Positions 10,780-63,839 of a stretch of DNA of 64,000 bases are shown here, in pieces. Both the position numbers and the translations under genes were made by a program. The notes beneath the pieces are model-generated. The model was not told the origin of the DNA. It saw only the letters and a list, made by a program, of their open reading frames with translations, and ran no database searches. Origin of the DNA: an uncultured Candidatus Micrarchaeota archaeon (GTDB lineage: Archaea > Micrarchaeota > Micrarchaeia > Anstonellales > Bilamarchaeaceae); the NCBI GenBank assembly GCA_963800555.1, contig CAWDBH010000010.1, forward strand, positions 104,603 to 168,602. The letters run 5' to 3'. Position 1 is the first letter of the stretch. Each line of letters begins with the position of its first letter.

Positions 10780-12246
10780 TCATTCTTCCAGATTTACGAT
10801 GCTCTCCTTCTCATTATCCTTTGCTGTGTATAAAATGTAATCGAACGGTAGGCCGAGACCCACGTCTGGAAGGCTATCATGGTAACCAGAATTCCCGACG
10901 TGCAGGTGCTGGTGCGGTAATATCGCAAGCGAGTCGCTGACGCTATCGGGCATCTTCACGCGCGTACAGAATTCGCGAAGAGCAACTCTGATAACTCCTA
11001 ACGTGTTTTCAGCAGTATTTGTTTTCTGAGAATTGGTAACCTCTTCGTAAACTCTATTCACTACGTATGCGCGCGCCTTTCTCCACTTCTCCACCGTCAA
11101 TTGACTTTGCTTGGGGAGCGAGCGCACTATCTCTTCTGGTGCCGGTCTTCCTTCCATGGCATTCCTGACGATAGCGCAACCAAGGCTTAGAAGAAAGAGT
11201 GCTGAGTTGACAAGTGACGGTTTCCCCGTATCCTTTAGCGCCTTTGGCGTAAATATCTGCCAGGCCGGGATTTCTGGGAAATAGCATTTTGCGCAATCGA
11301 TGACCGAGGATTGGGTGCCATTCGAGAGTATTGAGATCAAAATGCCGCGTTCTATAGCAGCATCAACGATTCCCTTCTGCTCTGCGGTGAAGTACCAGGC
11401 TTCCGGCCTGCTCCCGGAAATCCTTTTCTGGACCTCCCGTCCCATGGCAATCAAACGTTTCGTGCCGAGTTTGATGTCATTATTACCGAGCTTCCTAATC
11501 ACGAGACCGACATGATCAGGATCCCCAACTATCAAATGTACGATGGTATAGTTGTTTGCCATGACCCAGCGCGGAGCCGGGTGTTGAAATATATCCGGCA
11601 TGCTTTCGAGAAGAGAATCAGCTCTCCGGTAATAAACTGTTGAAAGCGATGCTACTTGTTCCGCAGCATTCTCCCCAAAACAGCTATTCAGTATATCGAC
11701 AGTACTCGAGAATCCGTAATCTATCAGCACACTCTTGAAAGCCGAATACACCACGTCGTTTAACCCACCTCTGGGGAGCAAGAGAGTGGAATGCAGGTCG
11801 AAGCTAACGCTCCGGTATCGTAAGTCTTTAAGACGATCTATGACTTCTGATGCGCAGGAGTCCTCAGTTACATCGTGTTCATGGAGCGGCGGTTGCTCGA
11901 CCCTTTCAATATCTCCGTCACTTGATTGGTAATATGTTACCCCGAAAGCCAAGGGGTTCTGCCTGACCTCATTCTCGGTCTTCGGATCAGGGTTTTTAAG
12001 GATGCGGAATATCGAGATTGGCTGTATTTTGTCGATCAGCGGCTCAACAGCCCGCTCTAGTTCTGCTTCGCTGTCCCTGACCGCGACCACGCGCTCTCCT
12101 TTGATACCGATCCACTTGTTCGGGTACATCCCCCCGATATCTTCCATATGTCGTCTGGCCCAGTCATAGCTGCGCTTGGCCTCTCCGGCCTGGTCAACGT
12201 TAATAATCCGGCTTATCTGCTTACGTTTTTCGTGCAAATATATCAC
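10780..12246 (-). CDS. Two-part protein: N-terminal DUF5678-like domain plus HAD-like fold with non-canonical catalytic residues
   Basis: N-terminus YPNKWIGIKGERVVAVRDSEAELERAVE. HAD-like motifs appear in order: FDLHSTLL (DxH instead of DxD), ILSNGTQ, TGKPS, VGNSGYHD (GN instead of GD). Confidence 0.6.
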   Translation of the reverse strand: MIYLHEKRKQISRIINVDQAGEAKRSYDWARRHMEDIGGMYPNKWIGIKGERVVAVRDSEAELERAVEPLIDKIQPISIFRILKNPDPKTENEVRQNPLAFGVTYYQSSDGDIERVEQPPLHEHDVTEDSCASEVIDRLKDLRYRSVSFDLHSTLLLPRGGLNDVVYSAFKSVLIDYGFSSTVDILNSCFGENAAEQVASLSTVYYRRADSLLESMPDIFQHPAPRWVMANNYTIVHLIVGDPDHVGLVIRKLGNNDIKLGTKRLIAMGREVQKRISGSRPEAWYFTAEQKGIVDAAIERGILISILSNGTQSSVIDCAKCYFPEIPAWQIFTPKALKDTGKPSLVNSALFLLSLGCAIVRNAMEGRPAPEEIVRSLPKQSQLTVEKWRKARAYVVNRVYEEVTNSQKTNTAENTLGVIRVALREFCTRVKMPDSVSDSLAILPHQHLHVGNSGYHDSLPDVGLGLPFDYILYTAKDNEKESIVNLEE

Positions 12247-14298: not shown

Positions 14299-16266
14299 TC
14301 AGCGGACGCCCAGGAATTCTCTGTTCAGCAGCCATGGACCCGGAATGCCGATTTCCCCATGCAGGAGATTACCCTCAGGGGTCACGTATGTGCCCTTATA
14401 TGTGTTGGGCGAAGAGCTGCCCGTTGGTCCGGTGAATAGCTGTGACTCGAATGTGGGGGCTTTGTTGTACTGACCGAAAAGGCGGAGCATCGGATCGAAC
14501 TGGTTAGCAGGTCCGCTCCACATATCCCCCCAGCTGAGCAGATTCGTCTTTCCAGGTACATACGCTATGTCCACGACATGCATGCCCCCTCGGGTATTCG
14601 CAGTGGCCACAACAGTATGAATGCCATTCGCACGGTAGAAATCACCGACGAAATCAGCGGCGCCTGCGCACAATGTGACCCCTGGCTGTGGATATGGTGT
14701 ATTATGCGTGCTGTACCAAGTGGCAGCGCCCTGCAGGTATGCGAGTAGCTGATTGTTATCCACGGACGCGACCTTAATGACCGAGGGATCCAGGAAGTTT
14801 CCGGCCATGAGGGCGCTTTGCGCCCCTTGAGCGTATGCGACCTGTTGCATGAAAGCGAGCAGGAATCTGCCGGCGTTTATCACATCGTCGGTGGAAGCGC
14901 CTTTGTACTTGGCTGTGAAATCATCGAAGCTCTTCGCTCCGAGCAGCCTGCTCTTTGCGTTATTGTCCACGGTATCCCAATTTGCATCTCCGGATCGTCC
15001 GAATCCGTAAGGACCTGGATTCTGCGTCGTGGGGATATCAGTGGTCGCCTGCGGGACCCCTCCCGGACCCATACGCTCATATTGGGAGCTTATCACCGTG
15101 TTCATACGCGGTCCAGCGATGACCAGGTTAAGTCCAGCAATGATCATGACGTCATTGCCCGGATTTATGTCCGGGTTCCAGTGGGTGATGCCTCCTCTTA
15201 CAAATACGTCTCCGGTCGCCCAGTCGCCGAAATTCATGGTTCTCGAAATACTGCCGCCGTACATGGATTTTATCACACCGTAGTTTGCGAATGGCCCTAT
15301 GGAATAATTAGAGAACCTGAATTGAGCTCCCATAGAAACGCTCTCGAGCTGTGGAGCATAATATCCGATGTATGCTGTCCTTATCGGAGTGCTCGCAGCG
15401 AAATAGAAGTTAGGCGCCCCATAAACCAGAATCCTCTTGTTGTATTCAAGGGACGCGCCGCCTGCGATGTTGAGATAACTGTCGTCTCCCAACGGATAAG
15501 AGAATGCTCCGATTCCGAAGGCTCCCAACCTCAGTCGCCATTTATTGTCCGCGCCGAATGGTTGCGAATATCCCACACCTATCGCGTGCGAGGTGTAAAG
15601 ATAAGAAGGCAGATATCCTACCGCGCTGACACGACCGTAATACATGCCCGTAAAATGCCCCAGGTCCAGGCTCTCTTTCACGGACATGGTAGCGAATGGG
15701 GCCGATAGTGCTCCGAACCAGATATTCCCTCCATCGAACCTGAGCATGTTGTTACGGCTGAAATTATAAGCCATGAAAGCCGAAACGGCAGAACCCGCTT
15801 CGTTCGATAGGATGCCTCCGCCTCCGCTGACTTTATGATTGAGACTTATAGGCCGCTCATTTCCGTTCATATCGACTTTTTCAATGCCGCCAAGAGCCGG
15901 ATCACGGTAATCCGGTTTTGGAGGCGTACTCGAGATTGGAACGTCGGATGGCTTTTCGGTGTCAAATCTCATCTCTATCGTGCCTACGTCGACATCTACG
16001 GTAGAATTCCTTGGAGCCGCTTCTGTGGGAGAGGCTGGTTCTTCTGCTTTGGGGGACTCCTCAGCTGCTATTGGGACAGGCATCTGAGCCTCTTGCGCAT
16101 ACGCTCTCCTTTCACATAATGGGGTCGATATCATGATTGCCGCGGCGGCCACTGCGGCACTCAATCCGAATGCTCCTAGACGAGTGTTTGCTTTTTCTGC
16201 CGTCTCGGTTTGCTTCCTTGTCTCGCTTCCGTGCTTCGTAAATCGTAATTGCATTATATCTACCAC
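14299..16266 (-). CDS. Signal-anchored secreted protein: Pro/Glu linker, beta-strand-rich aromatic/Gly region, C-terminal transglutaminase-like Cys-His-Asp domain
   Basis: N-terminal hydrophobic segment LGAFGLSAAVAAAAIMI. Alternating patterns in the middle, for example WRLRLGAFGIGAFSY and SVSMGAQFRFSNY. C-terminus GVTLCAGAADFVGDFYRANGIH...GGMHVVD...WGD. Confidence 0.65.
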   Translation of the reverse strand: MVDIMQLRFTKHGSETRKQTETAEKANTRLGAFGLSAAVAAAAIMISTPLCERRAYAQEAQMPVPIAAEESPKAEEPASPTEAAPRNSTVDVDVGTIEMRFDTEKPSDVPISSTPPKPDYRDPALGGIEKVDMNGNERPISLNHKVSGGGGILSNEAGSAVSAFMAYNFSRNNMLRFDGGNIWFGALSAPFATMSVKESLDLGHFTGMYYGRVSAVGYLPSYLYTSHAIGVGYSQPFGADNKWRLRLGAFGIGAFSYPLGDDSYLNIAGGASLEYNKRILVYGAPNFYFAASTPIRTAYIGYYAPQLESVSMGAQFRFSNYSIGPFANYGVIKSMYGGSISRTMNFGDWATGDVFVRGGITHWNPDINPGNDVMIIAGLNLVIAGPRMNTVISSQYERMGPGGVPQATTDIPTTQNPGPYGFGRSGDANWDTVDNNAKSRLLGAKSFDDFTAKYKGASTDDVINAGRFLLAFMQQVAYAQGAQSALMAGNFLDPSVIKVASVDNNQLLAYLQGAATWYSTHNTPYPQPGVTLCAGAADFVGDFYRANGIHTVVATANTRGGMHVVDIAYVPGKTNLLSWGDMWSGPANQFDPMLRLFGQYNKAPTFESQLFTGPTGSSSPNTYKGTYVTPEGNLLHGEIGIPGPWLLNREFLGVR

Positions 16267-28696: not shown

Positions 28697-28837
28697 TCTC
28701 CCACCAACGGGCGGCGAATTCCCTCACCAAGAGGAATGCACGGTCCGCCAACCGAGCATCAGACTTTCTTGCATAATTAATTTAAAGGCGTCCAAAAACG
28801 TCGAAAAATGGTTGACATTTCAATATATCTATGAAAA

Positions 28838-29359
28838 CTAATTACCATCCCTGCTGAGCGCGAATAAGCCGCCTAATCCGCCCACAACGAAATTTATCAC
28901 CATGCCGTATACCAGGATTCCTACGCCGCAGATGGACGAAATCCCGACACCCGCCATATCAGTGGTGTTCGGGAAAAGGGCCCCTGCCAACACGGATTCC
29001 GGTGTTGCGAATGCGGTGCCGCTTGCGAATCTGCTTATTATGACGATGCTCAGTACGATGACTACGCAGAGCTGGAACGCGCCGATTACGAAACATGAGA
29101 ACGCGGCCACAAACCCGGCACCGATGGCATCGAATTTATATTTTTTCACCGCACGGTAGCCTGCCCAAAAGAAAAGGCAGAACATCAGTGGGTATAGCAT
29201 GAACTCATAGATCGTGTCGATCTGATTTATGAGATGTGTTGTCTCTGAGGTGATGAGCAGGGACGCGAGCTGGAGTATCAATGAAATCACAACTAGCAGG
29301 ATCCCTACGGCGCTTATGAGTGCCGATGCGAAAACGATTTTTTTAAGATCTAAAGGCAT
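28838..29359 (-). CDS. Membrane protein of unknown function
   Basis: Five hydrophobic segments. Start moved to MPLDLKK (29359) to avoid overlap with gltX. Confidence 0.6.
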   Translation of the reverse strand: MPLDLKKIVFASALISAVGILLVVISLILQLASLLITSETTHLINQIDTIYEFMLYPLMFCLFFWAGYRAVKKYKFDAIGAGFVAAFSCFVIGAFQLCVVIVLSIVIISRFASGTAFATPESVLAGALFPNTTDMAGVGISSICGVGILVYGMVINFVVGGLGGLFALSRDGN

Positions 29360-29405
29360 CCTTTCACCATAGAAGCAGAAATAGAATGGAAAATTTATAA
29401 AGGAC

Positions 29406-31085
29406 TCAGCATGTAAAGATGAACGTGAGCCTTCCCACATCTTTCTTGTCCAGCCTGCAGAACCCGAACCGTTCGAACTGGATTATGTCCCCGACATCGA
29501 GTTTCGCGCATGCCGGTTCGCAATAACCCTTGATAATCTCGAGGCTTTTGGGGTCGAACTCGCCGTCAGGACCTAAGAGGTCTTTCGGGACTAGAACGGT
29601 GCAATCAAGCTTTCCATCGCTGACCCATTGGATCTTCTTTTCCGGCATATCGCCTGCTTGGACGAGCTCCGCTTTGCCCCTTTTGATGAGTTTGAGGTTG
29701 CACAAGTCCTTTAGCCTGAACGGTTCGCCTTCTTTCAATTGCGATGCATCGCTTTTAGATATGAAAACCTTGCCCGATACATTGAGATCCCTGCTTCCGA
29801 CGTCTTTCTTCGGATTGAGCTTCAGCTGGATATTTCGTTTCTCGAATCTGTTGATATCCACTTCGACCGGATCAGAAACAAAGAAGAAGTGCTTAGCTTC
29901 AGGATCCAGGAGCTTCCTGTTGAATGAGAGGAGTGATTCGAGGTCGGGCTCGCTCTCGACTTTGGATATGCCGAAAGAGAGGACAAACTCCTTGATAGCT
30001 TCTGGCAGGATACCCCTGCGCCGCATGCCAGCGAGCGTCGGCATCCGAGGGTCATCCCATCCCATCAGCTTCCCGCTCTCCACAAGAGGCCTAAGTAAGC
30101 GTTTGGAGATCGGTGCGTTCTTTATCGCGAGCCTGGAGATGGAAATCATCTGCGGGACCGGAAGGCCGAGTTTCTTCAGTAAATATACGTAAGCCTCGTT
30201 CCGGAGCTCGTATTCCTTGGAGCGTATCGGATGCGTTATGCCGAGGACGGAGTCCATGACAGCGCCCTGGAAATCGTATGTGGGCCAGACCCTGTATTTT
30301 TTGCCCTGGCGGTAATGCGGTGTCGTGATTATCCTGAACAATGTCGGGTCCCGCATCACCGTGTTCTGGGACTCCATATCGCCCCTTAGCCTGATTATGA
30401 CGCTCCCTTCCTCCGCTTTCCCGAGCATCTCTTTCCATAAGGCGACGTTCTCTGTCGTTTTCCTAGAGCCGCATGCGCAGCGTTTCATCCCTTCCCTGCC
30501 CTTGCTGATATCCTCCTGCTTACACGTGCATGCATACGCATCGCCGCTCTCTAGGAGTTTCCCGCAAAGCTCGTACATCCTGGGCATGTAGTCGCTGCAA
30601 TATTTTTCCTCGTCCCATTGGATGCCGAGCCAGGTTATACCATCGCGGATCGCATCAAGGAATTCGGGTTTCTCGGCTTCCGGATTGGTGTCGTCCCACC
30701 TGAGAAGTATCTTTCCGTGGTATTTCTTCGCTATCGTGTATGAGAGGCAGAACGCCTTTGCATGGCCGATATGCGGCCAGCCGTTGGGTTCCGGAGGATA
30801 TCGGACGACCACTTTCCCATCCACCGCATTCGGAACATCGATGCCTTTCTCCTCCTCTTTCTTCTGGGCATATTCGAATTTCGACATCTCGGATTCTATC
30901 TGCTCTTTGGTGAGTTTCGATACCCTGGCGACCTCAGCGTTGATCTTGGCCATCGTCGCCTTCATATCCTTTTTGCAGTCAGGATCCTCTCCTATGACCT
31001 TTCCGACTATGGAACCCGCGTTCGGTTTGCCGTAGTCGAACGCATTCTTCAACACGTGCTTCGTGATGATTGAATCAAGAGACAT
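29406..31085 (-). CDS. gltX: Glutamate--tRNA ligase, archaeal type
   Basis: PEPNGWPHIGHAKA (HIGH motif) and a long archaeal/eukaryotic-type C-terminal anticodon-binding region. Confidence 0.93.
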   Translation of the reverse strand: MSLDSIITKHVLKNAFDYGKPNAGSIVGKVIGEDPDCKKDMKATMAKINAEVARVSKLTKEQIESEMSKFEYAQKKEEEKGIDVPNAVDGKVVVRYPPEPNGWPHIGHAKAFCLSYTIAKKYHGKILLRWDDTNPEAEKPEFLDAIRDGITWLGIQWDEEKYCSDYMPRMYELCGKLLESGDAYACTCKQEDISKGREGMKRCACGSRKTTENVALWKEMLGKAEEGSVIIRLRGDMESQNTVMRDPTLFRIITTPHYRQGKKYRVWPTYDFQGAVMDSVLGITHPIRSKEYELRNEAYVYLLKKLGLPVPQMISISRLAIKNAPISKRLLRPLVESGKLMGWDDPRMPTLAGMRRRGILPEAIKEFVLSFGISKVESEPDLESLLSFNRKLLDPEAKHFFFVSDPVEVDINRFEKRNIQLKLNPKKDVGSRDLNVSGKVFISKSDASQLKEGEPFRLKDLCNLKLIKRGKAELVQAGDMPEKKIQWVSDGKLDCTVLVPKDLLGPDGEFDPKSLEIIKGYCEPACAKLDVGDIIQFERFGFCRLDKKDVGRLTFIFTC

Positions 31086-32055: not shown

Positions 32056-32319
32056 GTGGTTGAATTCGAGGTTCCCGATGGGCCTGAGGCTCCGGAACCA
32101 GGAGAGGAGAGAGTAGTCGTAGACGACGAGGATATGGAGTTCGTGGCCCACAAACGCGGGCGGCCGAGAAAGCTCCAGGGCCCGGAGGTTCTGGAGAAGC
32201 TCGTCCAGATGTATTTCGTGGAGCGGATGTCCATGAGGGAAGTCGCTGACAATCTCGGCGTCTCGCACATGAGCGTCTACCGTATGCTCAATGACCCGGC
32301 TATCGAGCTGCTCATCTGA
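32056..32319 (+). CDS. Small helix-turn-helix protein (resolvase/Hin-type HTH)
   Basis: MSMREVADNLGVSHMSVYRML. GTG start as given in the track. Confidence 0.6.
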   Translation: MVEFEVPDGPEAPEPGEERVVVDDEDMEFVAHKRGRPRKLQGPEVLEKLVQMYFVERMSMREVADNLGVSHMSVYRMLNDPAIELLI

Positions 32320-32340
32320 CTTAGCCGGTCTTTTTTCTTT

Positions 32341-35300
32341 TTATCCCATTTTTTCTGAGAAATGGCTGGCTTTGGCCCATTCAAGGGCCTCAGCATTGAA
32401 TCTCTGCAATCGATTCTCTTCGAATTTTGTGCAGGTGTGTTCAATGAGGGCGATGCATCTTTCATCCTTGACCGCGGCCTTCATCGCAGCGAGGTTAGCT
32501 TTAGGATTCGCTGCATAATCCTGGTAGGCGTTCACAAGGAATTGGAACTTCTGTTCTACTTCCTCCGGTTCGGGGGCGCCGGTCGCTGATTCATCCGTGG
32601 CAAGCCGGATGGCGGCGGAATTGAAATCAACTTTTTTTGATTCTGGTAGATCCAGCCTTCCATTCCAGTACCTCCTGATAAGGAAGATATCCCTGGGTGT
32701 CAGTCCCATCCCTGTCATCTGAGCTTCCGCTTCCTGCGCGCTCCCTGAAGAGGAATATAGTGCATAAGCCTCGGTCATAACGCGGAATCTCTGCTTGATG
32801 GCACCTGTGATGGTGAGGATATTCAATTCCGGCATGGGCTTGTCCGAGACCGCTGATTTCCCAGTTCCCTGATCTACACGGGCCTTGGCCTGCGCGATAT
32901 TGCCTGCCCTTACCATGTAGATGAGCGGGGAGACCCCGTTCAACAAAGGAGTTAGCGGGCTGCCCGTCTCATGGAGCCTTCGGATTCGCTCGCGTCCCTG
33001 AGAGCCCGTGACTATGGTTTTTCGGCGCGCGATTTTCGGCTGCTCATGCGCAATTTGGGCAGTCTGGACATCATACTCTATTATCGGAGTCATGAGCGAG
33101 TCGGTTTTTGCCGAAAGCTGAGGTATCTGGGTCGGGGAGCCGAATCTTGATATCTGGCCCGTGCCGACAGATTGGATGAATTTCAGGAACATGCCGTCTT
33201 CTGTCACGGCGACGCAATAATCGGTTTTGCCGTCTGCCGAGCGGACGACGACGTTCAGGTATTTTCCGTAAACGCCCTCGTCCCATCCAGTGACCCACGA
33301 ACGGACGAACGTGGATGGGAGCTGGTTCTTGTCGGAGATGTCCCATACCGGGGCACCGCGCGTGATCTCGTCCTGTATCATCTGTTCCCCACCTCTGACC
33401 ATACTCACAGTAGTAGCCACGGTCTTCTCCATATTCGGTTTTAGCCCCAATGACGGGAGGTCGATATGCGCCATACGCATGGGCGTGCCGGCTGCAAGGA
33501 GGGAATCCAGATGTTCCTGGACTGCGAGGTCATAGGCCTGGTAATGCTCGGCGAATACAGTGTTGCCTTTATTGTAATGCCCCTCGAGGTTGTCGCATCC
33601 CGCGAACCTTCTCCACACGCCTTGCGACTGTGACAGGTATGCAACCGAGAATTGCGTGTTTCCGTCCGTGGTCACATAGACCGGAACGACGTAGTCCAGC
33701 CTGCTGTGCACCCCATCACCGACAAGCATCGGCTTGCCGAAAGCCACGCTCTGATGCTCGTTTATGACAAGTGAGGGGCCCGGAACGAACGCGGCTTCGT
33801 TATCAAGCATTATCTTGTGCAGTCCTGCCGCGAAATCCTGCGCGATGGCGTTCACTTCAGATCCGGACTGAGCAGGATCAAATGGGAAAAGATGGGCATC
33901 AAGCATCGCTTTCCGGGCTTCTGCGGCCGCGCTGCTGGAGTGAGGGGCTTCAGACTGCGCTTGAGGAGGCATTTGACCCTTCTCCGAGGCTTGCGGCTGC
34001 TGGGGAGCCGCCGCTTCCGCGTCTTCCTCGGCTTGCCACGGCGCCAAAGGCGCTTCCTCGTCTTTGTCCGCATGCCACTCCTGGAACGAGGCGGGTTTGC
34101 CATTTTCAGCCTCGGTGGACTGCTGAGGGGGAGTCCCCGCCGCCTCTTCATCGTAAATAGGCGCTTCTTCGCCTTGCTCCGCATGCCATGCCTGAAGTGG
34201 AACTTTTCGCTGGGCAGATGCGTCTGCATGGACGTTTGGAGTTGGGGTTGATGGGGAAGCCTTTTTCCAGCCTCCTGCATTTGGCTGGCTGGCACTGGGA
34301 GCCGCCGCCTCTTCATCGTAAATAGGCGCTTCTTCGCCTTCCTTTGCCTGCCATACCTGCAAGGGAGTTTCCTGTGCCGCGGCTGCAGGACCATGGTTTC
34401 TCGTACGAACCCATGCCAAGGCCGCGGTTTCAAACTTACCCATGCGGCTGCTCTCCGAAGCCTCGAAAATCTTCGGTATGGCGGCGACACTGCCCGCGTC
34501 TTTTATGTGCTCCCTCAGCCTTATTATGGACCGGGTTGCGGCGAATTCCTGGTATGCCTGCCGGATGGATTCGAATTTTGCCTGGATTTCCCCAGCACTC
34601 GGATCCGACCTGAGCTTCTTGATAGGGCTTAGCGTGAACGTATCCCTTAGAGCCAGGGATGCCCTGGCCTCGCCCATCAGAGCACGGTCAGTTTCCTCAG
34701 ATATCTCGGTTGGAGCCTCGCGACAAAGGGCGGCCTCCCGGGCGTCAAGGCCATATGCTTTCATCCGCCGCTCGGCTTCTGCCGGATTAGTTTGATAGAG
34801 CGCATTTACAGCCTGGAGAAGGGATACCCTGTTGTGGATATTATTTGCCTTGGTACCTTGCCTTGCAACAGCCTCAAACCGCTGCTTGCGCTCGGAATCA
34901 GTCGTCAACTTCCCGGTGCATCCCTTCAGCACGGCAACTTCCGCTGGGGAAAGGCGGTAGGTATCGATAAGCCGGGATAATTCAGCTTCTGAAGGGTTAT
35001 TCTGATAATGGAAATAAGCGGTATTCAGCTGATTCACCCTTTTCTCGACGCTCGCCTCATCGGCCCAGCTGGTGGCCCTTGCATGGAATGCTTGCTTCCG
35101 TTCCACTTCAAAAGCCGTTAATATTCCCTGGACGCCTTTAACGAAAAACTCTTGGTCGGAAAACAGATCAGTTCCTTCGAACTTACTGGTAAAAATTTCG
35201 TGGAGCTTGGCTGAAACGCCCGGCTGACCTGAGATGATGAAAGCTAAGGCTTCCTCCAACTTCTCTGCCCGGTGAGATTCCAAAGCCATCGTTTCCGGTT

Positions 35301-36273
35301 TGCGCCCCCCCGGCCCTTTTGCAAGTTCCTCGATGCCGGGGATGACATCCCCCGGAACGCCTCCGCGGAGGCTATACTGCCTGATAACTGCGATATCCTC
35401 CGGCTGGAAACCCAATCCCTTCATCATCCCCACGGCTCGATCCGGATTCGATTCATACATAGCGTAAGCCGCATCAAGTAGGAAAAACCTGTTCCTTATA
35501 TCAGCATCCAGGATGATGGCACGCGTGGCGGGCCCGACTGAACCCGCTGCTCCAGATGAAGCGGACGGAGGCGGCTCTGGCGGGGTCGACCCGCTGGGTG
35601 GTGGAGGAACCTCAACCGGGGCTTCGGTTGGCGAACCCGAAGCCTGCGAAGGCATCGCAGGTGCCTTGACTGGGGATTTCTGAGCAGGCGTTGCCGGGAG
35701 AGGCCTTTTCGAGGCAGCCGGTCCTTTGGTCTGTGAAGCGATATCCACTTTTCCTTTATCCTTTTGTAGTGCAGACGCACCAGCTGAAGGTTTCTGAGTA
35801 AGCGGTTTGGTCTCGGTTTTGCCTGCGGCAGTTGTTTGGGCTGGAGGCGGTGGAAGCGGTCTTGTGGATGGTTTGGTCTCGGTTTTGCCTGCGGCAGTTG
35901 TTTGGGCTGGAGGCGGTGGAAGCGGTCTTGTGGATGGTTTGGTCTCGGTTTTGCCTGCGGCAGTTGTTTGGGCTGGAGGCGGTGGAAGCGGTCTTGTGGA
36001 TGGTTTGGTCTCGGTTTTGCCTGCGGCAGTTGTTTGGGAAGATGAAGCGGCGGCTTTGATTCCTGGTAACGCCCTTGCAATCGTGCCCGCCACATTCGTA
36101 CCGCTATCGACCTGAGCATGAGCCGCGTTCACCGCGGTGGACACTTTCGCATGGTCGCTTTGTTTCGGTTCATGAGGGATCGCCGGTTGTCTTTCCGTAT
36201 GCATCTGGTGCTCTTGCGACTCGCCTTCTGTCGTTTTTTTCTTAAGTGCCACTGGTGTCTCTTGAGGTGTCAT
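32341..36273 (-). CDS. Giant repeat-containing protein (1310 aa), function unknown
   Basis: Uninterrupted 3.9-kb ORF. Contains perfect 22-aa Pro-rich repeats, three Trp-acidic repeats, six ~40-aa helical modules of the form (R/K)F..L..AY..Y..NP..A...M...GL, and two beta-rich globular regions. Confidence 0.85.
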   Translation of the reverse strand: MTPQETPVALKKKTTEGESQEHQMHTERQPAIPHEPKQSDHAKVSTAVNAAHAQVDSGTNVAGTIARALPGIKAAASSSQTTAAGKTETKPSTRPLPPPPAQTTAAGKTETKPSTRPLPPPPAQTTAAGKTETKPSTRPLPPPPAQTTAAGKTETKPLTQKPSAGASALQKDKGKVDIASQTKGPAASKRPLPATPAQKSPVKAPAMPSQASGSPTEAPVEVPPPPSGSTPPEPPPSASSGAAGSVGPATRAIILDADIRNRFFLLDAAYAMYESNPDRAVGMMKGLGFQPEDIAVIRQYSLRGGVPGDVIPGIEELAKGPGGRKPETMALESHRAEKLEEALAFIISGQPGVSAKLHEIFTSKFEGTDLFSDQEFFVKGVQGILTAFEVERKQAFHARATSWADEASVEKRVNQLNTAYFHYQNNPSEAELSRLIDTYRLSPAEVAVLKGCTGKLTTDSERKQRFEAVARQGTKANNIHNRVSLLQAVNALYQTNPAEAERRMKAYGLDAREAALCREAPTEISEETDRALMGEARASLALRDTFTLSPIKKLRSDPSAGEIQAKFESIRQAYQEFAATRSIIRLREHIKDAGSVAAIPKIFEASESSRMGKFETAALAWVRTRNHGPAAAAQETPLQVWQAKEGEEAPIYDEEAAAPSASQPNAGGWKKASPSTPTPNVHADASAQRKVPLQAWHAEQGEEAPIYDEEAAGTPPQQSTEAENGKPASFQEWHADKDEEAPLAPWQAEEDAEAAAPQQPQASEKGQMPPQAQSEAPHSSSAAAEARKAMLDAHLFPFDPAQSGSEVNAIAQDFAAGLHKIMLDNEAAFVPGPSLVINEHQSVAFGKPMLVGDGVHSRLDYVVPVYVTTDGNTQFSVAYLSQSQGVWRRFAGCDNLEGHYNKGNTVFAEHYQAYDLAVQEHLDSLLAAGTPMRMAHIDLPSLGLKPNMEKTVATTVSMVRGGEQMIQDEITRGAPVWDISDKNQLPSTFVRSWVTGWDEGVYGKYLNVVVRSADGKTDYCVAVTEDGMFLKFIQSVGTGQISRFGSPTQIPQLSAKTDSLMTPIIEYDVQTAQIAHEQPKIARRKTIVTGSQGRERIRRLHETGSPLTPLLNGVSPLIYMVRAGNIAQAKARVDQGTGKSAVSDKPMPELNILTITGAIKQRFRVMTEAYALYSSSGSAQEAEAQMTGMGLTPRDIFLIRRYWNGRLDLPESKKVDFNSAAIRLATDESATGAPEPEEVEQKFQFLVNAYQDYAANPKANLAAMKAAVKDERCIALIEHTCTKFEENRLQRFNAEALEWAKASHFSEKMG
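35804..36038. repeat. Perfect 66-bp tandem repeat, about 3.5 copies, in frame inside the giant gene
   Basis: Unit GGTTTGGTCTCGGTTTTGCCTGCGGCAGTTGTTTGGGCTGGAGGCGGTGGAAGCGGTCTTGTGGAT starts at 35804, 35870, 35936 and 36002. It encodes QTTAAGKTETKPSTRPLPPPPA on the minus strand. Confidence 0.95.
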
Positions 36274-36575
36274 ATCATCACCTCTATTTCGTTGAATATT
36301 GCGCTGAACTGCTCCAAGAGATGTATCCGGTCATGCAAGTCAGCCCGTCCCATGGATTTGAGCATCTTTATCTCCCATTCGCATAGTTTGCCGTGGACAT
36401 TCTTGAGCCTAAGGATATCGGGTTCCAGCTCGAACGGTTTCTCTCCTGCGGCATCCCAGGTGGCGACCGCATTCTCGATGCTGGATATCGTCCGATTTGA
36501 CGTCTGGAGGGCGAGCTTCTCGAGCTCATTTATCTTCTGGACATGAAATGAATATATCTCCCCCGTATTTTCCAT
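36270..36575 (-). CDS. Small helical protein (101 aa) translationally coupled to the giant gene
   Basis: Start placed at MENTGEIY (36575). Its stop overlaps the giant gene's ATG by 4 nt. Confidence 0.6.
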   Translation of the reverse strand: MENTGEIYSFHVQKINELEKLALQTSNRTISSIENAVATWDAAGEKPFELEPDILRLKNVHGKLCEWEIKMLKSMGRADLHDRIHLLEQFSAIFNEIEVMI

Positions 36576-36731
36576 ATGAATCAAGGAGAAAATTAGATAA
36601 GAGAAATTTAAAAACAATGCCAGTCTAGTCACATTGACACAAGATGCCAAGTAGATTACGCAACCCGAGTCCGGTCGATTCGGGCAAGGCGACCATATTC
36701 CTTTTATATTTTCCCTTATTGCTTATTACTT

Positions 36732-37091
36732 ATGTTCGACACGCCGACTCCTGTCCCTAAACCAATATTCAATGGGAGAGCGTGGACTAGTCCTATGCGA
36801 GGAAAACCTTTGTTGGGGCAAAACAATAACGAGGTCCAAGAGATAGTAGCCAGGTGCTTGAAACAAGGTGTTATCGATACCGGCACAAATATGCGTTACA
36901 GGGTATCTTTGGCTGATAACGTGCCGGAGGCAGCGTTAATGGATTTTGTCCGAAGGATCAGGATCGGAGGCGAATCCGATTATGATTTGATGAGGGATGC
37001 ATTAGGCAGAAGAATGATCTCCATGGTCTGCGTTCCGAATCCCAAACAGCCTGAACCCGAAGTGACGCATTTCAGGCATGGCAGGAAATGA
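36732..37091 (+). CDS. Hypothetical protein (119 aa)
   Basis: ORF only. Confidence 0.45.
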   Translation: MFDTPTPVPKPIFNGRAWTSPMRGKPLLGQNNNEVQEIVARCLKQGVIDTGTNMRYRVSLADNVPEAALMDFVRRIRIGGESDYDLMRDALGRRMISMVCVPNPKQPEPEVTHFRHGRK

Positions 37092-37094
37092 GAT

Positions 37095-37673
37095 TCAGCG
37101 GTTTTGGTGCCTGTAATCGGCTCCTCCTTGGATGGAAGCTACCGCGAGTGCGTCCCTTATCTTCCCGTTGAGGTTGCCGGCGCACTCACTGTCGGAACCG
37201 ATTATCCGGCGCATGGGAATCGATTTCGTGATCACTAAACTTGAGGAATCCACCTTGAAATCTACTGGCACGAGTTGTTTACCATCCACAGCGAACCTGA
37301 TTATGCCGTGATTGTAGCCTTCGGCAAATTTGGAATCGTATATGAATCCGATAGAGAAACCCAGCTGAGCTTCCAGCTCGGCATGTTTCGGAGTGGTGCG
37401 GAGCAGTGTCGTCGCGAACGTAATCATGTCCTGAGACTGGTCGACAAGCTCGAGACCGCTATCCGCGGAGCAGAGACGGTCTATGTTGCGCTCGGTCTGG
37501 CCGGAGCCAATCTTGGCTGATAAGATGCCTAAGCCGACGAGAGCCGCGACGCCGACACCTAAATAGGTCGGAAATCTGGATTTAGGACCATCGACCATCG
37601 GTGAAAGCGCCTTCAGCTCGTTTTTCCTCCTCCGCTCTTCTCTCGCCGTCTGGCTGAAATATTTGAGATTCAT
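37095..37673 (-). CDS. Hypothetical membrane-anchored protein (192 aa)
   Basis: Single hydrophobic segment YLGVGVAALVGLGILSA after a basic N-terminus. Confidence 0.5.
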   Translation of the reverse strand: MNLKYFSQTAREERRRKNELKALSPMVDGPKSRFPTYLGVGVAALVGLGILSAKIGSGQTERNIDRLCSADSGLELVDQSQDMITFATTLLRTTPKHAELEAQLGFSIGFIYDSKFAEGYNHGIIRFAVDGKQLVPVDFKVDSSSLVITKSIPMRRIIGSDSECAGNLNGKIRDALAVASIQGGADYRHQNR

Positions 37674-37776
37674 TATGATATACTATATCAAACTATTTAT
37701 AAATATACTTGCTTTTCTATATTTTACCACATAAATGCCAAACAGAATGCAGCGCTCACGCTAGTAAAAATGAGAA

Positions 37777-37806
37777 GACTCACGCTTCAATTAGAGTTGA
37801 TCCGAT
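37777..37806 (-). other. 3' half of the 16S pre-rRNA processing stem
   Basis: Complementary to 39425-39454: 14 bp plus 10 bp helices around a central 6x6 region that folds as a 3-nt bulge, a 4-bp helix and a 3-nt bulge. Confidence 0.75.
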
Positions 37807-37861
37807 ATTCTCGTACCTCGCACACTGCTTCCTCGATCTCCGACGTGTGAGTCAGAAATTT

Positions 37862-39353
<1,492 letters not shown>

Positions 39354-63712: not shown

Positions 63713-63839
63713 GGGCCTGTAGCTCAGTTTCTTTTTGCTATTTTTTGCCTTATAGGGCAAAAACGCAAAATATAGAGCAACTTGGTAGAGCGTCGGACTT
63801 TTAATCCGCAGGCCGAGGGTTCAAATCCCTCCAGGCCCG
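63713..63839 (+). tRNA. tRNA-Lys(UUU) with a ~54-nt intron in the D-loop
   Basis: GGGCCTG-TA-GCTC-AG-[54]-TTGGTA-GAGC-G-TCGGA-CTTTTAA-TCCGC-AGGCC-GAGGG-TTCAAAT-CCCTC-CAGGCCC-G. Confidence 0.85.

Follow-up and report, generated by a model that had tools for sequence, protein, structure and literature searches.

Small partners encoded beside much larger clients are known from the class I chaperone–effector pairs of type III secretion and from the LXG toxins of type VII secretion. Very large, lineage-specific proteins of DPANN archaea are represented by the SPEARE proteins of Nanohaloarchaeota, which are suspected to act in host interaction. Repeated short linear motifs are a feature of bacterial effectors—namely the EPIYA-type Tyr motifs of CagA and Tir and the PxxP ligands. 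For DPANN archaea themselves, attachment, feeding, and host manipulation are poorly understood, and a third or more of the genes carry no annotation. The system described here is a pair of adjacent genes in a 64-kb stretch of the archaeal contig CAWDBH010000010.1—the window, meaning the whole stretch that was analyzed. It consists of a gene for a protein of 1310 amino acids (aa), the large protein, and a gene for a 101-aa protein directly upstream, the partner. Judged by sequence searches and synteny, this two-gene unit is real, conserved, vertically inherited, fast-evolving, and confined to Micrarchaeota in public data. It is assigned to no known family. As judged by models compared with the structures of the Protein Data Bank (PDB) and of the viral database BFVD, it appears to be new in kind as a protein family and probably also as a fold.

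Family and Orthology

The family was delineated by an exhaustive HMMER scan of residues 265–1310 of the large protein against 1.84 billion cluster representatives. Counting that of the query, there are 46 clusters at 50% identity, of which 42 lie below an E value of 1e-10; the best relative is found at 8e-122. The stretch conserved across the family spans residues ~809–1204. All members that bear a taxon name are labeled Micrarchaeota, and 185,579 species-representative genomes yielded five matches, four of them in Micrarchaeota and the fifth in a metagenome-assembled genome (MAG) named "uncultured archaeon." The window belongs to the same group: It contains an archaeal 16S rRNA gene (37862–39353, minus strand) that is 96–97% identical to that of the MAG "Candidatus Micrarchaeota archaeon PMV_4.13," by which the organism is identified as a small-genome DPANN archaeon of the Micrarchaeota—in line with an earlier note made from the letters of the window, which had supposed a small-genome archaeon. 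The family is rare, and a scan of JGI metagenomes gave a single locus, of a paralog type that lacks the partner. No match was found on IMG/VR viral contigs, by tblastn in phage records or plasmids, or for core or partner in PHROGs; on these empty searches, a viral or plasmid origin is rejected. Full-text literature searches and papers on a Micrarchaeum and a Microcaldus ARM-1 co-culture gave nothing identifiable as the family. The large protein is identical to a sequence already recorded in NCBI/ENA (P0001), which lies on a 186-kb contig.

The closest relatives (P0002–P0009) have 712–782 aa and feature a basic low-complexity N terminus of ~230 aa, an alpha/beta domain, and a helical C terminus. 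The gene order AhpC/Trx, ArsR, 16S rRNA, a variable slot, a 92–94-aa gene, the large gene, a convergent HTH_7 gene, and glutamyl-tRNA synthetase (GluRS) is kept in two other Micrarchaeota genomes. Synteny and alignment identify the window protein as a fast-evolving ortholog of these ~770-aa proteins. Between the syntenic genomes, neighboring housekeeping proteins share 60–85% identity, the partner ~50%, and the alignable portion of the large protein 41–45%, its N-terminal third being unalignable. Partner and large gene are the fastest-evolving gene pair of the syntenic block. The orthologs are of ordinary size, and most of the repeats were added in the window lineage and do not define the family.

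Paralogs carry the core together with added domains—FHA, HD_5, Ank, and Metallophos, as assigned by Pfam—or, in some cases, with thousands of residues of sequence that is not recognized, up to a total of 5846 aa. The locus of this longest member, P0022 (L010, 1–26100 of contig SRR20818758_17437), features an insertion of ~18–20 kb between GluRS and ribonucleotide reductase. The insertion holds an AAA_lid_2 gene, ~14 tandem genes for 139–621-aa proteins without Pfam match, a partner homolog, and P0022; at the corresponding site of the window (28700–29440), merely a 200-aa hydrophobic, probably membrane, protein is encoded. A few kilobases from paralogs linked to SecDF, two genes resemble Ser/Thr kinases by eye (GxGGMG) in L006 (1–2520), L007 (1–2535), and L017 (1–540). 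These kinase-like neighbors and an FHA-fused paralog (P0028) hint at a link to phospho-signaling.

Conserved Core

Alignments define a family-wide core of ~480–530 aa, which consists of an alpha/beta domain, one helical module, and a terminal helix. The alpha/beta domain features the motifs AYxSxSQxxWRRFAG, YxKG, EHxQxxDxxIQ, YGxH, YxIAxTxDGMF, GSP, TPIIEY, and RxRxxGxHxxxxSP; the helical module reads R..L..AY..Y..G.LDP...RD..LF.RY and the terminal helix RL...A.QWA.D. AlphaFold2 yields a model of residues 781–1150 with a predicted local distance difference test (pLDDT) of 92.4 and a predicted template-modeling score (pTM) of 0.91, and a model of residues 781–1310 with a pLDDT of 87.9 and a pTM of 0.83. 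The latter pTM indicates that the C-terminal helical arm and the alpha/beta domain are modeled as one compact body. The earlier note had listed the helical modules as separate units and two beta-rich regions as separate globular segments. The presence of the modules holds, yet those at the C terminus are modeled in one compact unit with the domain, and the two beta-rich regions turn out to be halves of one conserved domain in the alignments and in the model.

According to these models, the core is folded; neither a described sequence family nor a solved fold could be assigned to it. Foldseek searches of the PDB with the two confident core models returned nothing credible (best E values 0.07 and 0.23, template-modeling (TM) scores of at most 0.26). 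Against BFVD, the best match has an E value of 0.009 with a TM score of 0.14, and none exceeds 0.32. phmmer and profile searches of PDB sequences gave no match for core or partner. Core, large protein, and partner are likewise without match in Pfam, NCBIfam, PADLOC, and PHROGs; in Pfam this holds for the window proteins even at E values up to 1, the limit at which 26 core sequences still share no common family. The earlier claim that the largest gene belongs to no recognized family is thereby upheld.

Across 26 diverse members, two Ser, two Arg, two Tyr, and one Gln are invariant, and a Lys, a His, and a third Arg are nearly so. Acidic conservation is confined to a single Glu, which is nearly invariant. 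Conserved residues of the window protein include Y879, S881, S883, W887, R888, R889, K902, Q919, S1012, Y1019, R1094, and H1101. This set of conserved Tyr, Ser, Arg, Lys, Gln, and His residues with one acidic residue gives a hint of anionic-ligand binding. A Kyte–Doolittle scan (19-residue averaging window, threshold 1.8) detects no signal-peptide or membrane segment in any of 48 family proteins, and the N terminus of the large protein has no signal peptide, as had been stated before. The same scan lends no support to the earlier proposal that the giant repeat protein acts in cell–cell or host interaction, if this is taken as a role at the surface. Adhesion-type repeat domains (Ig-like, cadherin, laminin-G, beta-helix) are absent, as judged by Pfam, from the window protein and 11 large paralogs. 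A surface adhesin or giant DPANN surface protein is rejected on these two grounds.

Architecture of the Large Protein

By composition, the large protein splits into five regions—basic, helical, acidic, alpha/beta, and again helical (Table 1). The Pro-rich 22-aa repeats, the Trp-acidic repeats, and the six helical modules that the earlier note had picked out by reading are all recovered by programs, namely Tandem Repeats Finder, BLAST, and a hidden Markov model (HMM). The basic region would form, from its composition, a disordered N-terminal arm. Orthologs carry an equivalent basic tail with an isoelectric point (pI) of 9.6–11.5, although BLAST cannot align these tails. Within it, the short segment SDHAKVSTAVNAAHAQVDSGTNVAGTIARAL is common to all orthologs and is significant among orthologs only; it is a candidate for a partner-binding helix, both the helix and the binding being putative. 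The arm also contains the sole array reported by Tandem Repeats Finder, which encodes 22-aa Pro-rich units (TTAAGKTETKPSTRPLPPPPAQ) containing RPLPPPP. Its copy number, as assembled, is provisional; since the 66-nucleotide (nt) unit is a multiple of three, any copy number preserves the frame.

The first helical region is absent from the orthologs, the alignments of which begin past it. BLAST of chunks of the protein against each other relates residues 248–300 to 1148–1202 and residues 558–623 to 1234–1301, the latter match including the terminal "...AALAWVR" helix. Both helical regions are built from modules of ~45 aa, six in all, which start at residues 256, 406, 476, 560, 1156, and 1236. A larger periodicity of 70 aa relates residues 380–431 to 451–501 (E 1e-7). 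An HMM built from only these six modules finds a module at the expected site elsewhere in the family (P0002, 9e-12; P0003, 1.5e-10). The copies of arm and modules share ~50% DNA identity, so the duplication is old. In the acidic region, residues 627–657 match residues 682–712 (E 3e-13), and the third Trp-acidic copy is degenerate. Over 38 nt, copies 1 and 2 do not differ in the core of this repeat, GEEAPIYDEEAA, and their flanks are ~60% identical, which points to gene conversion or very recent copying.

Alignment to the orthologs places the gain of the window copy, ~540 aa (residues ~245–785), between the conserved PPPP motif and the domain. As judged by internal similarity, this insert is a duplicated C-terminal helical unit to which two further modules were added, followed by the acidic repeats. 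By the same comparisons, the gains of the window copy are the second helical arm in its expanded form, the three acidic Trp/Tyr repeats, and the Pro-rich unit amplified in tandem. The segment "LSPREIFLLRRY" was considered as the start of a sigma-70 region 4 and rejected, as no helix-turn-helix (HTH) follows and Pfam gives no match.

Table 1. Features of the partner/large-protein locus; positions refer to the window
Feature	Position	Strand	Evidence
Large gene, 1310 aa, ATG start	32341..36273	(-)	Open reading frame (ORF) list
Residues 1–245, Pro/Thr/Ala/Lys-rich low-complexity, pI 9.9, ends PPPP..PPEPPP	35539..36273	(-)	Composition
Residues 39–69, short conserved segment (SDHAKVSTAVNAAHAQVDSGTNVAGTIARAL), common to all orthologs	36067..36159	(-)	Alignments
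Perfect tandem repeat, 66-nt unit, 3.6 copies, 100% matches, score 470	35804-36038	(-)	Tandem Repeats Finder
Residues 248–625, extra helical arm, four modules, terminal helix KFETAALAWVR	34399..35532	(-)	Internal similarity, module HMM
Residues 626–790, acidic low-complexity, pI 4.4, three Trp-acidic repeats	33904..34398	(-)	Composition, BLAST
Residues 791–1145, conserved alpha/beta domain	32839..33903	(-)	Alignments A1, A2, A4 and AlphaFold2
Residues 1146–1310, helical arm: family-wide module, extra module, terminal helix (RFNAEALEWAKA)	32344..32838	(-)	Module HMM, alignment, AlphaFold2
Partner gene, 101 aa, ATG at 36575	36270..36575	(-)	ORF list
Shine–Dalgarno GAGGTGA in the end of the partner gene, 4 nt 5' of the large-gene ATG	36278..36284	(-)	Sequence reading
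TATA-like box TTTTTAAAT, ~35 nt upstream of the partner ATG, candidate promoter	36606..36614	(-)	Sequence reading, archaeal promoter geometry
HTH_7-like gene, 87 aa, convergent; context rather than demonstrated part of the unit	32056..32319	(+)	Pfam HTH_7

Partner and Linkage to the Large Gene

The partner is acidic (pI 5.1) and belongs to a family of ~95–100 aa with the motif SNRxIxSIE..A.W(D/E)AA..KP ... RL..VH..L..WE..MLK ... R..LL.QF..IF; it is probably helical. Its TGA stop overlaps the ATG of the large gene in the tetranucleotide ATGA (36270–36273). This stop–start overlap and the Shine–Dalgarno sequence GAGGTGA support coupled translation, as the earlier note had concluded. Together with the TATA-like box upstream of the partner, the overlap suggests a single operon with a short leader, and TTTTTAAAT is, by the usual geometry of archaeal promoters, a candidate promoter of both genes.

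A profile search finds partner homologs directly upstream of nine family genes, with loci L002, L004, L009, L008, L010, L011, and L012 among the sites; the co-occurrence in related genomes on which the earlier note had wanted a check is thus found. For the orthologs P0003, P0004, and P0008, as at the loci L002, L004, and L009, the partner stop abuts or overlaps the start of the large gene. P0005 is accompanied by a 95-aa partner (P0047) on the same 3.7-kb contig. Giant paralogs have upstream homologs too: P0010 with 4349 aa (E 2e-17), P0022 with 5846 aa (E 4e-16), and P0035 with 4855 aa (E 1e-31). The homolog upstream of the 2280-aa paralog P0021 is a weak match (E 5e-6). In P0048 (829 aa), a partner is fused in frame to a large protein of the P0005 type. 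The divergences of partner and core are correlated over nine pairs (r 0.45, Mantel p 0.006). Two pairs that share a genome (L004 and L010) have diverged partners, which indicates that the pair was duplicated as a unit. As judged by these sequence comparisons, linkage between the partner family and the large gene is tight.

Proposed Role and Alternatives

The reading we lean toward, tentatively, is a 1:1 complex of partner and client in which the large, soluble subunit would be multivalent, either a scaffold or cargo. Binding in a 1:1 ratio is probable from the coupling, the linkage, the co-divergence, and the single fusion. Coupled translation would yield about equal amounts of both proteins, and the partner, bound to the large protein, would probably be a chaperone or adaptor dedicated to it, or a subunit. 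The likely site of contact would be either the N-terminal segment that is conserved or the long N-terminal stretch that is taken to be unfolded. The large protein would act in the cytoplasm as a multivalent platform: Through the conserved Tyr, Ser, Arg, Lys, and His residues, its folded core may hold a ligand that is anionic and probably carries phosphate, and the disordered arms would present short repeated motifs for the recruitment of other proteins. In the paralogs, the core is joined to FHA, HD, metallophosphoesterase, or ankyrin modules, or to sequence without recognized identity that runs to thousands of residues.

Several points weigh against the partner/client complex. The hint that the core binds an anionic ligand is drawn from residue types. 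The HMM of the N-terminal segment stays below significance in the giant paralogs that have partners, so the proposed partner-binding site stays a guess. The lone fusion lies on a short contig (3.6 kb) and is joined, relative to P0047 and P0005, at the three-residue microhomology "LQK"; P0048 could be a natural deletion fusion or an assembly oddity. A partner is not detected for P0012-type genes beside SecDF or for P0027, P0028, P0039, and P0046. The members without partner comprise the SecDF-linked group of ~590 aa (L006, L007, and L017) and FHA-, HD-, or Ank-fused or 3126-aa members, and the core therefore does not strictly need a partner.

Much of what suggests a complex would also suit export, and host interaction by an unconventional route is possible. 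The large protein would then be cargo that leaves the cell without a Sec/Tat signal—for example across the contact with a Thermoplasmatales host—with the partner as secretion chaperone or targeting adaptor and the repeats as fast-changing host-binding motifs. This we consider unlikely, though it accounts for a small, acidic, probably helical partner that lies immediately upstream, is coupled, and stays constant across cargo of 712 to 5846 aa. It also accommodates the long low-complexity N-terminal region, the variable added modules of the paralogs including ankyrin repeats, the fast evolution of the pair within the syntenic block, and the recent amplification or homogenization of the repeats. 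Archaea are not known to have a secretion apparatus for cargo of this kind, and neither the window nor the related loci show one linked to the pair. The ortholog, moreover, sits in a stable housekeeping neighborhood rather than in a variable island. The Micrarchaeota lineage is nevertheless one of obligate symbionts (PMC8975820), which favors export. A fuller version is distinctly doubtful: an unrecognized Micrarchaeota delivery system in which the partner would be a targeting chaperone, the new-fold core the common "handle" of effectors of ~700–5800 aa that enter the Thermoplasmatales host via the contact, and the Pro-rich and acidic Tyr/Trp motifs fast-changing mimics of host proteins. An enzymatic role of the core is improbable to a similar degree. 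The many invariant polar residues, the fusion of paralogs to phosphoesterase-type domains (HD, Metallophos) and to FHA, and the antitoxin-like position of the small acidic partner would suit a new-fold enzyme, for example one acting on phosphorylated substrates, with an inhibitor, immunity protein, or antitoxin. The core offers, however, one nearly invariant acidic residue and no recognizable catalytic motif, and PADLOC is without match; several paralogs without partner are hard to square with a toxic activity, and a natural fusion of partner and large protein exists.

The basic N-terminal tail with a pI of ~10 in all orthologs, the conserved Arg, Lys, and Tyr residues of the core, and the position of the gene just downstream of an unlinked 16S gene on the same strand in both the window and L002 would agree with a nucleic-acid-associated structural protein—of the nucleoid or related to ribosome or rRNA—using its basic tail and Arg-rich core. 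With paralogs in unrelated neighborhoods, an evolution much faster than that of information-processing genes, a strongly acidic insert in the window copy, and giant paralogs atypical for such a role, this is highly improbable. That the length is an artefact of repeat mis-assembly or of two merged genes can scarcely be credited. The perfect 66-nt array covers 235 nt, which could collapse or expand in short-read assembly, and the 540-aa insertion is seen in the window sequence only. Yet there are 3933 nt of open frame, the two ends match orthologs in the correct order, and the repeat unit keeps the frame at any copy number; with only ~50% DNA identity between the inserted arm and its C-terminal counterpart, a recent duplication by assembly does not account for the insert.

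The unit stands out as conserved, lineage-specific, and fast-evolving. Its core is modeled with confidence and has no known relatives, a small protein is its dedicated partner, and the family includes some of the largest genes in tiny Micrarchaeota genomes. The signature AYxSxSQxxWRRFAG ... TPIIEY allows for tracking of the family. Should the core prove to be a handle for exported effectors, or a new fold that binds ligands or acts as an enzyme, it would offer a route into Micrarchaeota–host biology; even as no more than a scaffold in the cytoplasm, the large protein represents a new protein family and probably a new fold.

Genomic Surroundings

The window neighbors of the pair are housekeeping genes—GluRS, ribonucleotide reductase, class V FBPase, a 2-oxoacid dehydrogenase complex, deoxyhypusine synthase, and others. 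The convergent 87-aa gene matches Pfam HTH_7 with an E value of 5e-5, slightly short of the curated cut-off. It is also found beside the orthologs in L002 and L004 (53–56% identity) and is absent beside the giant paralogs, being a conserved neighbor of orthologs only. A possible bidirectional terminator is an inverted repeat at 32290–32335 (GACCGGCTA ... TAGCCGGGTC), which overlaps the 3' end of the HTH_7 gene and adjoins the 21-nt gap between the stop codon of that gene and the convergent one of the large gene.

No 23S rRNA gene lies within the window. A lone 16S gene with the pair just downstream on the same strand is also present in the Micrarchaeota MAG of L002. Close genomes differ in the slot that separates the 16S gene from the partner gene (window, 36650–37860; L002, 6350–7640; L004, 700–1700). 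It holds a 192-aa protein with an apparent hydrophobic helix, as judged by eye, in the window, a 224-aa and a 136-aa protein in L002, and an ankyrin-repeat protein in L004; no mutual similarity is detectable among these slot proteins.

Further observations concern the periphery of the window. ARAGORN finds no tRNA gene in the whole window, and a partial Rfam tRNA match at 63776–63831 on the plus strand (33.4 bits, model positions 9–63 of 71) may be a truncated, split, or otherwise atypical tRNA. Two more sizeable ORFs have no Pfam match: one of 655 aa (14299–16266, minus strand) and one of 488 aa (10780–12246, minus strand). The former features, by eye in its translation, an Ala-rich hydrophobic N-terminal segment and might be a surface protein.

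Comparison with Known Systems

Like effectors of the EPIYA, Tir, and PxxP kinds, the large protein carries repeated short units—RPLPPPP and EEAPIYDEEAA—in low-complexity arms, and these are amplified or homogenized in the DNA. By eye, RPLPPPP resembles SH3 ligands, and EEAPIYDEEAA resembles phosphotyrosine motifs of the EPIYA or Tir type; both resemblances may be due to chance. In contrast to those effectors, the known hosts of Micrarchaeota are archaea and not eukaryotes, and the motifs are not present in the orthologs.

With the SPEARE proteins, the family shares its occurrence in symbiotic archaea of reduced genome and a size that can exceed 4000–5800 aa. It differs from them by having no protease, adhesion, or restriction-endonuclease domain in the members scanned with Pfam (P0022 left out) and no signal peptide or membrane anchor in 48 proteins; its hallmark is instead the new core of ~500 aa together with the partner gene.

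An origin as a toxin–antitoxin or defense system is rejected, PADLOC being empty for core and partner; its sole matches are similarities of the HD domain to Cas3 and Cas10 in the HD-fused P0027. A WXG100 partner is rejected as well: The conserved Trp of the partner lies in W(D/E)xAxx(K/R)P instead of a WxG motif, the alignment keeps W/F-(D/E/K)-x-(A/S)-x-x-(K/R)-P without conservation of the Gly, and Pfam gives nothing at E values up to 1. The layout of LXG toxins is rejected since no Pfam domain is present, the conserved part is C-terminal, and the downstream gene is the convergent HTH gene. Archaea are not known to have injectisomes, and neither an injectisome nor another secretion apparatus is seen in the window or in related loci.

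The closest resemblance is to bacterial chaperone/adaptor–cargo pairs, namely the type III chaperone–effector pairs and the type VII LXG toxins with Lap/WXG100-like partners. The present pair differs from these by the lack of sequence similarity, with no Pfam match for either protein at E values up to 1, and by a client the conserved part of which is a C-terminal folded core and not an N-terminal targeting domain. The small acidic chaperone beside its effector, a feature of type III systems, has a counterpart at nine loci (pI 5.1), the feature itself not being family-specific. As in the bacterial pairs, the small acidic partner lies immediately upstream and is coupled, the partner family stays constant as size and added domains of the client vary, and the client has a long, probably unstructured, N terminus.

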